Below are positions 989 through 46,700 of a DNA stretch of 64,000 nt, piece by piece. Under the pieces are notes generated by a model. It did not search any database. It was not told the origin of the DNA and saw only the letters and a program-made list of their open reading frames with translations. The DNA is from a virus (taxonomy: Duplodnaviria > Caudoviricetes). Position numbers and translations under genes: made by a program. The DNA is taken from positions 160,001 through 224,000 of IMG/VR virus record IMGVR_UViG_3300027740_000003; one strand, given 5' to 3'. Numbering within the stretch: position 1 is the stretch's first letter; each line of letters begins with the position of its first letter.

Positions 989-1061
989 TCAGCATATTCT
1001 GATTTGAACAGAAACTATATGGTCCCAGGCCATAGGTACTACCAGGTTATACTATATGCTG
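989..1061 (-). tRNA. tRNA-Pro(UGG), C at position 33
   Basis: CAGCATA/TATGCTG acceptor (C1-G72, A73 typical of Pro), GTAT/GTAC D-stem, TATGG-CCTGGGA-CCATA anticodon arm, TTCTG-TTCAAAT-CAGAA T-arm; followed by CAA. Confidence 0.85.
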
Positions 1062-1064
1062 ATA

Positions 1065-1156
1065 AAGAATATGTTCCGATTCGAACGGAATTTAACCAAT
1101 ATAGGACTCGAACCTATTTAACCTCGTCAGGTTGGGAAACCCATCCCCATATTCTT
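1065..1156 (-). ncRNA. tRNA-like RNA with 9-bp acceptor-like stem and two T-arms
   Basis: AAGAATATG/CATATTCTT closes GGGA-TGGGTT-TCCC, AACCT-GACG-AGGTT, ATAGG-TTCGAGT-CCTAT and TTCCG-TTCGAAT-CGGAA; fills the gap between tRNA-Asp and tRNA-Pro. Confidence 0.6.
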
Positions 1157-1158
1157 AG

Positions 1159-1230
1159 CGCCTCCAAGGGAACTCGAATCCCTGTATCTGCTTCGACAGA
1201 GCAGTGTCCTTGCCGCTGAACGATGAAGGC
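1159..1230 (-). tRNA. tRNA-Asp(GUC)
   Basis: GCCTTCA/TGGAGGC acceptor, CTGCT-CTGTCGA-AGCAG anticodon arm, AGGGA-TTCGAGT-TCCCT T-arm, G73. Confidence 0.92.
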
Positions 1231-1483: not shown

Positions 1484-1605
1484 AGGCCTGGGAGAGATTT
1501 GAACTCTCGACCCGGAACTTATCTTTGGATCTTCCAGACTTGAACTGGAAAGAGACGTGTATCTAGATCCCACAGGTTCCCGCTCTTCCTCTGAGCTACC
1601 AGGCC
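1484..1605 (-). tRNA. tRNA-His(GUG) with 50-nt anticodon-loop insertion (putative intron about 1569-1520)
   Basis: GGCCTGG/CCAGGCC acceptor with possible A-1:U73 pair, GCTC/GAGC D-stem, GGAAC...GTTCC anticodon stem enclosing CTGTGG[50 nt]A, GAGAG-TTCAAAT-CTCTC T-arm. Splice register, and so anticodon identity, is ambiguous. Confidence 0.75.
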
Positions 1606-1907: not shown

Positions 1908-1991
1908 TGGTGATGGTTGGATTTGCACCAACACAGGATAACCGGGAGTTTTACAGACTCTTGCCTTCGCTAAAAATAGGCGAGCACCACC
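1908..1991 (-). tRNA. tRNA-Tyr(GUA), long variable arm, atypical T-loop
   Basis: GGTGGTG/CATCACC acceptor, CTGTAAA anticodon loop, 12-nt variable region, GTTGG-TGCAAAT-CCAAC T-arm, A73. Confidence 0.85.
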
Positions 1992-43777: not shown

Positions 43778-46700
43778 CTAAAAGAAAATGGATCGTATAA
43801 AATCGTCACCGAATCATTTTCGTTAAGATACAACCCCCCTATTTGTGAAATTATTCTATTATTATCACTACTTGATACATCTTGATGTGAAAGAACAATA
43901 GATTTTGTACCTATATTAATAACTTCTTTTCTTATAATTGCAGCGGCTGCATCAAATCCAGATATAATATATCCATCATCTAAAGCATTTAATCTAAGAG
44001 CAGTAGCTGTGCTAAATCCAGTAGGATTATAATCATTAACATTTGTCGAAAGATCTGTAGGGGTTATAAATGTATCAGCCGTTTCAACAGCAGAAATGTT
44101 AACACGAACATTTATCCTTGACATTGTACAAATAGCATAGTTTATAATGTCGCTTTCGCTTAATCTTATTTGTGCCTCATAAATATTTGAGCCTGATGAT
44201 ATAGTTATAGACTCAGACATGAATGTTGGCATGTATCCATCTACAGTTAATGTACTTCCTATTTGTAAACCTGTAGTTATATTCATCAATCTGACTTCGG
44301 CCTGCAAATAACCGTCAAAAACCCCACTTGTACTGTACAACACTGCTTCAAAATATCCATCCGCAGATGAATAATTTACAGAATTTATTTCAGTTGATCC
44401 AATTGTTTTCCAACCGTCTAGATTATTAAAACCACCACCAATAGAAAATGATATGTATGTTGTTGTGTTGTCAAGAACATTAGCAATATATCCATCAACA
44501 TAATTTCTTGTTGCTGCATCTTGGGTAGCTATTGGATCTGCAAGATTAGTTATATTCAAGCTGCCTGCGCTGTTGCCAGCCACTAATACTTGTGATAATG
44601 TTTGTGTGCCAGACGTTCCTGTTGGCGCTCTTGATTCCCAAATTCTTTCAACAGCATCCCATGTTAAGACATAACCGTCTGTTATCCCACCAATATATGT
44701 CAAGTCTCCACTATTTGTTATTGCAACATATCCATCATTTACAGGATGCGTTAACAAGTCTAAGCTGGCAATATATCCGTCAACATAATTTCTTGTTGCA
44801 GCATCCTGTTGACTAATCGGATTTGATAAATTTGTTATTATAAAACTACCAGCACTGTTTCCTACTGTTAATACTTGTGATAATGTTGGTGTTAATGATG
44901 TTCCTGTTGGGGCCCGTGATTCCCAGATTCCTTCAGCAGCGTCCCAAGTTAAAACATAACCATCTGTTGCTCCACCAATATATATTAAATCTCCATTATC
45001 AGATATAGCAACATAGCCATCATTAACGGGATGAGTTAATAAATCTAAACCAGCAATATATCCATCAACATAATTTCTTGTTGCAGCATCCTGTTGACTA
45101 ATCGGATTTGATAAATTAGTTATTCTTAAACTGCCGGCGCTATTTCCTTCGGTTAGAATTTCAAATAAATTTGAAATAGTTGCTGAACCAGTTCCATTTA
45201 AAACAATATTGTTTCCTGAAGAATCTGTTAAAACAGCATATCCATCTGATTGTCTTATCCAGAATGTAGAATGGCCAGAAGCTGGATTCCCTCCAGGAAC
45301 AGATGATTGCAAATCTAAAACTAATCCAGTAGGATCTATCAGTCCACTTACTGTTAGTTTCCCATCTATGCTAACGTCTCCGTCAAATTCACTATCTCCA
45401 GAAACAAATAATATTGTATATCCGTCATCAGTAAGATTTCCGGGGAAATTTTTAATTATATGGACATACCCATCAAGACCAGGGCCTCCAGCGCCTGGTT
45501 GTAAAAATATACAACCAGATCTAGATATATTACTTACACTTCCTTTTAAGAAAATATTTCCAGCAGATATACTGGTTCCACTTCCAGATTGTAAAACAAT
45601 ATCTCCACCAACACTATTCGCTCCATTTTTAGAACCTGAAGTGATAGTAATATTTCCGGCAGAAGCATTTGATGCACCGGCGTTCCCAGCAGACACAGAT
45701 ATGTTTCCAGATACGGAAGACCCGCCAGAAGCAGTTATAGTAATGTTTCCAGCATTTGCAACTGGATTAGTTTTGATTAATATATCTCCACTATAAGAAC
45801 CAACGCCACCGGTTCCGGTTTCAATTGATATGTCTCCACCAGTAGACGTATTTGATCCGTAAGTTTTTAAAGTAAGAGATCCTGAATTTCCGGCATTTGA
45901 TTGGCCAGCATATACAAGTATACTTCCAGTATTTGACCCTGCCGGACTAGTATAAATATTTATATCCCCCGAGTATCCCGCATTTGCAGGATCTGGAGGG
46001 CCAGTATAAATTGCAATAGTTCCAGTATTTGAGCTACAAGAAGTACCGCTACCTGTAAATATAGATATTTGGCCTGTTGGAGCACTGTTAGTAGCAGTAG
46101 AACCTGTAGATATATAAACAGAACCGCTTGATGTAGCTGTAGAACTAGCCGCTCCAGTAGTTATAGAAACCCCACCACCATCTCCAGAGCTTGTATCTCC
46201 GGTAGCTACTGTTATTACTCCCTGTGCTGGCGATGTAATTAAACTAGAATTAGTAATAACAATATTATAACCGTCTGTAGTATTACCAAGATTTAAAATT
46301 TCAGCTAAAGTTCCTCCACCAGTACCAGTTCCAACAATATGAGTTCTCCAACGGCCTGTTGTTTGGTCATAAATTATAAGAACCAAACCGTTAGGTTCTA
46401 ATATTAAATCAGAACCATCAGATGTAAGAATACGATCCGGAGCACTACTTCCCAGATTTTCATTCATTAATGTTATAGCATAAGAGCCAATATTAACAAC
46501 AATTTTCAACAACATGTCATCGTTTTGCAAAACAGCTAAAAAGCCAGTAATTGTTGCTATTCCCGGACTGTCCAAACGAAGGATTTGTAAACTTGACCAA
46601 TTTGGTGGAGACACATCATTGTTTGCTCCAGCAAACAAAGAATGATTGATAACTTGTTGATAAGCTCCCACTCTAAGAGAAAGGTTGCCTCCGCCAAGAT

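Follow-up and report, generated by a model that had tools for sequence, protein, structure and literature searches.

YrlA-type Y RNAs (RF02553) are non-decoding tRNA mimics that contain modules resembling the T- and D-arms, and some of them are encoded by phages (Chen et al. 2014, PMC4201824). Allo-tRNAs are irregular tRNA-shaped genes found in soil metagenomes (Mukai et al. 2017, reviewed in PMC7609411), and some allo-tRNA-like RNAs, with possible five-stem junctions, lack translation activity (PMC7609411). In RNase P, T-box stem I, and the L1 stalk, two T-loops interdigitate, and such platforms are a universal device for docking tRNA elbows (PMC3664808, PMC4810234). In T4, the tRNA cluster ends with small stable RNAs, species 1 and 2 (rnaC and rnaD), and rnaC itself finishes in a T-arm-like hairpin. 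Annotation usually treats a phage tRNA array as a series of decoders, and the misfits are ignored or miscalled.

Here, we analyzed a stretch of 64,000 nucleotides (from here on, the window) of the IMG/VR virus record IMGVR_UViG_3300027740_000003, in which an original prediction had pointed to a five-armed tRNA-like RNA with two T-arms lying between two tRNA genes. We are close to certain that this element is a conserved, functional member of a large family of phage RNAs that have a double T-arm and no anticodon.

A five-helix RNA within a phage tRNA array

The record belongs to a giant soil phage of 435,004 bp, with 35% GC, 23 tRNAs (according to ARAGORN), and a tmRNA. The five-armed RNA lies on the minus strand, which is the orientation of the tRNA array that carries it, and folds into a stem-closed tRNA-like structure of 92 nt (1065-1156). 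The 9-bp terminal stem, the D-like arm, the short arm, and the two perfectly paired T-arms that had been predicted were all present on this strand. The 5' strand of the acceptor-like terminal stem, AAGAAUAUG (1148-1156), forms nine perfect pairs with its 3' strand, CAUAUUCUU (1065-1073). With no linker to this stem comes a D-like arm, GGGA-UGGGUU-UCCC (1134-1147), followed by a substitute for the anticodon arm, AACCU-GACG-AGGUU (1120-1133), with a 5-bp stem and a GACG tetraloop. T-arm 1, AUAGG-UUCGAGU-CCUAU (1101-1117), occupies the position of the variable arm and has a perfect T-loop consensus. A single-stranded spacer of 10 nt, AUUGGUUAAA (1091-1100), that contains a UGGnnAA motif conserved in the family separates it from T-arm 2, UUCCG-UUCGAAU-CGGAA (1074-1090), which joins the terminal stem directly, as in tRNA. 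The short arm had originally been drawn with a TGACGA loop. The arm itself stood, but the loop at the anticodon position, which has 4 nt (GACG), or 6 nt with the closing pair open, is better described as a GACG tetraloop, since the closing U-A pair covaries in relatives.

The minimum free energy (MFE) and centroid folds coincided in the same five helices (−28.2 kcal/mol, z = −2.2, with 4 of 200 shuffled sequences folding as well). Since this z-score is modest, the reality of the element rests on its homologues and not on its fold energy. Its placement between tRNAs was as tight as predicted, with spacers of only 2 to 3 nt when the tRNA coordinates of ARAGORN and Rfam were used. Upstream, tRNA-Asp(GUC) (1159-1230, minus strand) has its discriminator at 1159 and is separated by 2 nt (CU), while downstream, tRNA-Pro(UGG) (989-1061, minus strand) starts at 1061 after a spacer of 3 nt (UAU, 1064-1062). 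The 9-bp terminal stem and the T-stem add up to 14 bp, instead of the 12 bp of tRNA, and for this reason the RNase P cleavage site and the mature ends are uncertain.

ARAGORN did not call the element as a tRNA, and Rfam 15 gave no match over 1062-1157 even at E values of up to 10, including RF00005 (gathering threshold, 29 bits). No second copy was found in the 435-kb genome, where the best other score with the family model R3 (see below) was 24.5 bits. Two other annotations of the region were discarded: an open reading frame on the plus strand (956-1219) is spurious, as it runs antisense across two tRNAs, and in a terminator-like call placed on T-arm 2, the supposed T-run is the 3' strand of the terminal stem and hence paired.

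The same array holds other irregular features. Between tRNA-Glu and tRNA-Phe, there is a sub-threshold tRNA (1909-1990, minus strand; Rfam score of 24.8 for a cutoff of 29 bits, silent in ARAGORN) whose anticodon loop reads GUA (Tyr), whose variable region has 12 nt, and whose T-loop, UGCAAAU, is aberrant. A tRNA-His(GUG) (1484-1605, minus strand; Rfam, 50.3 bits) has an insertion of 50 to 53 nt in its anticodon loop, which ARAGORN calls an intron. Just downstream of the tRNA array, in a region without a credible open reading frame (523-562), the 20-bp sequence CCTTCCGCTGGAACGATATG appears in two copies, the second of which (543-562) differs only at its first base.

A family of phage RNAs with two T-arms

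A scan of IMG/VR for two T-arms located 6 to 16 nt apart retrieved at least 114 loci. Among the viral matches listed, 50 of 94 had both T-stems paired at 9 or 10 of the 10 positions (ca. 5 expected by chance), and the same scan run on 185,579 prokaryotic genomes gave paired T-stems in 3 of the 78 matches listed. A covariance model constructed only from the sequence of the window copy (R1) matched, over the full length of the model, 18 viral loci at E < 1e-3, and these 18 sequences, folded independently (MFE), showed the identical five-helix design. A second pattern, in which T-loop 1 and the GG..AA of the spacer were fixed and T-loop 2 was relaxed, provided 59 further matches in 100 new viral loci, and a scan of metagenomes with the loop and spacer sequences of the window copy itself provided one further, distant member. 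With a family model (R2), members scored 41 to 102 bits and ordinary tRNAs ca. 39 bits at most; there were 19 matches of at least 41 bits in the 100 viral loci listed, while nothing exceeded the tRNA-level score in 100 cellular (prokaryotic) loci (best, 35 bits). The search for homologues with covariance models that had been proposed as a check thus located the family in phage contigs, and judging by the loci covered, it would apparently be restricted to phages. For the final model (R3), we used 54 sequences from other phages and excluded that of the window; this model recovered the window copy (1062-1157, minus strand) with 80.8 bits and an E value of 2e-21; the next best score in the window, 19.7 bits, was that of tRNA-Glu. 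A BLAST comparison of the region and the element with 50,697 GenBank phage records returned no relatives of the window copy, nor was a close IMG/VR relative found of a 943-amino-acid protein of the window.

Because the retrieval patterns fixed the T-loop sequence, part of the T-loop conservation is a product of the search, and as the alignments had been made to fit the model, the numbers that follow lean towards structure. Slid and shuffled controls, free stems, and the leave-one-out model limit this bias but do not remove it. In alignment A3 (22 sequences), 94.8% of the cells were paired and 25 of the 28 pairs had double changes, with a covariation score of 0.835 compared to 0.20 in shuffled and ≤0.14 in slid controls. 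In alignment A5 (54 sequences), the values were 92.3%, 26 of 28 pairs, and 0.887, compared to 0.196 and ≤0.14, respectively. Double compensatory changes affected all nine model pairs of the terminal stem, the four of the D-like stem, and the five of the tetraloop stem. In T-arm 1, the three outer stem pairs covaried in both alignments, and T-arm 2 (helix 5) was paired in 98.5% of the cells, with double changes in four of its five pairs (A5). The only fixed pairs were the G-C pairs adjoining the T-loops, which the search patterns had in part prescribed. The covariation analysis suggested with the original prediction hence came out in favor of selection on structure: the compensatory changes, seen in 26 of 28 pairs, span 32 lineages of the element, and the five helices keep pairing in this way across dozens of unrelated phage contigs. 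Furthermore, G-U pairs were frequent (e.g., 12 at one pair in A5), and as these would be A-C mismatches on the opposite strand, the selected molecule is this RNA strand.

The window copy has the features of the family, namely, two 5-bp hairpins with UUCGAnU loops, a single strand of 8 to 12 nt with UGGnnAA, a D-like arm (4-bp stem, loop of 5 to 6 nt with UGG) followed by a tetraloop-capped stem, a gapless junction between the terminal stem and T-arm 2, and one copy per genome. The commonest length of the terminal stem was 7 bp (19 of 53 members), and 11 of the 53 had 9 bp, as in the window. In 42 of 53 members, this stem meets T-arm 2 directly, as in tRNA, and in 39 of 53 it adjoins the D-like stem without the linker of positions 8 and 9, unlike tRNA; base 26, between the D-like stem and the next one, is absent as well. 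The tetraloops are mostly GACG, with GAUA, GAAA, GGCA, and UACG also found, and a few members have an irregular loop of 9 to 20 nt. A 7-nt anticodon loop was not found in any member, which excludes decoding. The suggestion of a noncanonical tRNA consequently fails in the decoding sense.

Most conserved sequence outside the helices was concentrated in the loops and the spacer. Among 39 lineage representatives, a G of the D-loop, not forced by the patterns, was conserved in 87%. Position 6 of T-loop 1, free in the pattern, was U in 85% of the lineages, and T-loop 2 is unconstrained at that position. In the spacer, G was conserved in 92% and AA in 90 to 92%, and UGGnnAA had already been seen in members retrieved with the pattern that left the spacer unspecified. 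The acceptor stem, on the other hand, is unconstrained, and the discriminator was C in 44%, U in 28%, A in 23%, and G in 5%. In seven loci of phages in which nearly all tRNA genes encode CCA, three members have G-CCA after a 7-bp stem, and the remaining ones have CCG, CCU, or nothing. The encoded G-CCA of some members would fit a tRNA-like maturation of the end, and the pattern suggests that a charged CCA end is not strictly needed. The gapless arrangement of a 7-bp stem and T-arm 2 suggests the geometry by which RNase P and the CCA enzyme gauge tRNA.

The GGTTAAA that precedes each T-arm in the window copy had been taken as the mark of a duplication. This did not survive the comparison, as the other members do not have the heptamer repeat and an exact scan for GGTTAAA-plus-T-arm repeats gave no matches. 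Across the family, the first GGUU corresponds to the 3' strand of the tetraloop stem and a short linker, while the second belongs to the single-stranded UGGnnAA spacer. Judged from the sequences of the members, the two-T-arm design is old and family-wide and not a local duplication.

Two other arrangements with repeated T-arms came up in the searches. Three consecutive T-arm hairpins, enclosed by a 6-bp terminal stem without a D-like arm and joined by G-rich linkers (GGGUUAA and CUGGCG), appeared at L005:1762-1861, L016:5809-5908, L031:3957-4056, and L145:3655-3754 (the last one a Streptococcus pneumoniae contig) and scored ca. 34 bits with the family model. A second recurrent class of the two-T-arm scan (L040:3883-3925, L052, L058, L017, L035, and L047, viral contigs of which two are of ca. 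410 kb) consists of a normal tRNA followed, 4 nt past the discriminator (…CCACGAA/CGAG), by a lone T-arm, UGCGG-UUCGAGU-CCGCU, with a conserved …CCGAGAU…GGUA tail. It resembles the start of a permuted, YrlA-like tRNA look-alike located in the window right after tRNA-Phe (1634-1824).

Distribution and genomic context

We found a single copy per record in 24 records of 4 to 178 kb. The only multicopy case seen was a viral contig with two diverged copies in tandem (L309:565-660 and 689-780; 75 and 49 bits), 28 nt apart. The tight array spacing recurs in the relatives as had been anticipated: among 62 unique members, 30 were within 15 nt of a tRNA on the same strand, 21 of them on both sides, while the fetched loci of another 18 contained no tRNA. 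Some members are taken by ARAGORN for tRNA-Leu or tRNA-Ser, at the cost of breaking T-arm 1. A cultured phage, Synechococcus phage S-CREM1 (OP535465.1), which infects Synechococcus sp. CB0101, carries an unannotated member (44481-44570) between tRNA-Phe and tRNA-Ile, which the Rfam tRNA model scores at only 20 bits, and this was the only record found when the GenBank phages were searched with cyanophage-type copies.

The presence of the element is patchy. It is absent from T4 and from S-PM2, which has a similar tRNA array; an S-PM2 relative (contig L025) has it between tRNA-Ile and tRNA-Ser(GCU), where S-PM2 does not. Similarly, carrier G010 has the element and its relative MW202796.1 (61% terminase identity) lacks it. 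The carriers have unrelated terminases and include a phage with an SU10-type portal. This combination of patchy presence and unrelated terminases indicates an accessory gene, horizontally scattered.

No Pfam family was common to the immediate neighbors in eight loci, and no protein was found that all seven carrier genomes compared had in common, which makes a host-encoded partner likelier than a phage one. A systematic comparison of the flanks identified as recurrent genes HNH homing endonucleases, a Dps-like protein, and a calcineurin-like metallophosphoesterase. In three lineages, the gene of this last protein, of 170 to 200 amino acids, was no farther than ca. 2 kb from the element (15 of 84 member loci versus 0 of 134 nonmember loci). 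Copies were found at L046:11604-12107, L112:3-458, and L019:795-1289 and, in the genome of the window, at G000:C1:125220-125834. It is embedded in the tRNA array of the cyanophage-type contigs L019 and L082 and lies 36 kb away from the element in the phage of the window. We rejected it as an obligate partner because it is absent from three of the seven carriers (S-CREM1 and two others), complete genomes included. Enzymes related to this phosphoesterase heal RNA ends with 2',3'-cyclic phosphates, and by analogy, a link to tRNA repair is possible. Two families of HNH homing endonuclease genes were found 0 to 3 kb from the element, in five and three lineages, respectively (L074:6159-6725, L271:8803-9372, and L326:650-1249, among others). 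Such clustering is expected for phage tRNA clusters and may help to move segments of the array between phages.

A tRNA look-alike and how it compares with known RNAs

The conservation of the loops and the spacer, together with the freedom of the acceptor stem and discriminator, points to a non-decoding tRNA mimic that would act through its elbow or elbows. The RNA would be cotranscribed with the tRNA array and then excised by the tRNA-processing enzymes of the host, with RNase P generating the 5' end and the 3' end being trimmed and perhaps provided with CCA. It would adopt an L-shape with a blunt anticodon end and a normal elbow formed by T-loop 2 and the GG of the D-loop, to which a second T-loop/GG module might be added, with T-loop 1 capped by the GG of the spacer. 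Such a look-alike could occupy or divert a host factor that reads the shape of tRNA and not its anticodon, and candidate targets would be a defence toxin that attacks tRNA or an enzyme that binds the T-arm or the elbow. Anticodon nucleases are the best-known tRNA-directed defences, and a decoy for them is unlikely because the anticodon loop is missing. Among the functions suggested with the original prediction, a decoy is still the best guess, and we propose this decoy-type mechanism tentatively, at somewhat less than even chances. For the full explanation, the identity of the element and the decoy mechanism taken jointly, we consider the balance about even, a judgment that is a compromise between its two parts.

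Other explanations were weighed against the same evidence. A decaying or chimeric tRNA pseudogene, or a site acting as DNA (for attachment or as the target of a homing endonuclease), would have no function as RNA. The repeated GGTTAAA of the window copy does look like a duplication scar, HNH homing endonuclease genes are common near members, and neither ARAGORN nor Rfam calls the element. However, the heptamer repeat is missing from the other members, each phage keeps one intact copy, the G-U pairs are strand specific, and the compensatory changes extend over most pairs and across 32 lineages. This covariation already largely refutes such an explanation, to which we give next to no credence. 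The tight packing between tRNAs, in the window and in about half of the members, could instead reflect a module acting in cis, a kind of punctuation for processing or stability that recruits RNase P or RNase Z and has no function once released. A T-arm with an acceptor-like stem is indeed the minimal substrate of RNase P and RNase Z. Against this count the members that have no tRNA in the locus fetched and the fact that ordinary tRNAs already punctuate these arrays. Besides, the gene comes and goes among related phages with the same array, as in S-PM2 and contig L025, and the parts that such a module would not need (the second T-arm, the D-like arm with UGG, and the UGGnnAA spacer) are the most conserved. 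We regard this alternative as fairly unlikely.

A tRNA that is charged without decoding, through CCA and aminoacylation by a synthetase of the Ser, Leu, or Ala type, could serve as an aminoacyl donor or as a sponge for EF-Tu. SerRS, LeuRS, and AlaRS ignore the anticodon, the geometry of the acceptor stem and T-arm is tRNA-like, an arm stands at the variable position as in class II tRNAs, some members are called tRNA-Ser or tRNA-Leu by ARAGORN, and a few encode G-CCA. But the discriminator and the acceptor stem are not conserved, whereas identity elements normally are; most members have no CCA even where all of the neighboring tRNAs encode it; G3:U70 is absent from the window copy; and the conserved parts are at the elbow and not at the acceptor end. 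In our opinion, this makes charging unlikely. The RNA might also bind tRNA elbows rather than mimic them, with two T-loops and two GG motifs forming a stacking platform that captures tRNAs of the host or the phage. The presence of two T-loops in one small RNA, each of them near a conserved GG, is in line with this idea. Known platforms, though, combine the bulge and the apical loop of one helix and have different sequences, whereas here there are two separate hairpin loops of 7 nt with the exact T-loop sequence of tRNA, for which one elbow and an extra module is the simpler description. We thus consider a platform of this kind quite improbable. With a conserved elbow, two free ends, and a patchy accessory spread, we infer that a decoy or sponge would fit better than a charged donor, a processing signal, or a pseudogene.

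A bolder version of the look-alike is a double elbow, in which each T-loop would be locked by its own GG, so that one RNA would present two elbow faces or a T-loop platform; we see it as a long shot, albeit one with consequences. If true, it could keep two sites that read elbows occupied at the same time or capture tRNAs, and it would represent a new class of RNA inhibitor of host tRNA handling or tRNA-directed immunity, spread horizontally among unrelated phages. More generally, keeping the shape, discarding the anticodon, and doubling the T-arm is the pattern expected of a molecule that targets the machinery reading tRNA shape, which includes processing and modification enzymes, the elbow contacts of the ribosome, and a growing list of tRNA-directed defence toxins. 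The family is in this sense a concrete candidate, and an abundant one, for RNA-based counter-defence or takeover of the host.

As far as we could determine, the family is apparently undescribed so far: it is absent from Rfam 15, permissive thresholds included, and a full-text literature search did not find any description of a tRNA-like RNA with two T-arms. The family and canonical tRNA (RF00005) share several traits: the acceptor-like stem stacks directly on a T-stem of 5 bp whose loop reads UUCGAnU, the D-stem has 4 bp and a loop containing GG, a stem of 5 bp stands at the position of the anticodon arm, and the genes lie in tRNA arrays with similar spacing. The family differs in having a tetraloop in place of the anticodon loop, in the loss of the 8-9 and 26 linkers, and in a D-loop of only 5 to 6 nt. 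The extra arm at the position of the variable arm is a trait of class II tRNAs, but in the family this arm is a perfect T-arm and the single-stranded UGGnnAA is conserved, in contrast to canonical and class II tRNAs alike. Assignment to class II tRNA, tRNA-Sec, or allo-tRNA was rejected, as the anticodon loop is absent and the discriminator is not conserved in the family.

The T4 RNAs rnaC and rnaD are longer (119 to 139 nt), have one T-arm at most, and fold differently, and R3 gave no matches on the T4 genome. YrlA RNAs have an open anticodon side, a sealed acceptor side, and a Ro60-binding stem, while the family retains the normal topology of tRNA, has two T-arms and no Ro60-type stem, and is not matched by RF02553. 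Allo-tRNAs are bacterial and have real anticodon loops and acceptor/T-stems of 8/4 or 9/3 bp, unlike the 7-9/5 geometry of the family, which lacks the anticodon and was found only in phages. With the interdigitated double T-loop motif, the family shares the presence of two T-loops in one compact, elbow-related RNA domain. Nevertheless, when compared by secondary structure, that motif is made of a bulge and a loop in one helix, and the family has two independent T-hairpins in a tRNA-shaped body, a natural two-T-loop architecture for RNA structural biology of which one carrier, S-CREM1, is in culture together with its host.
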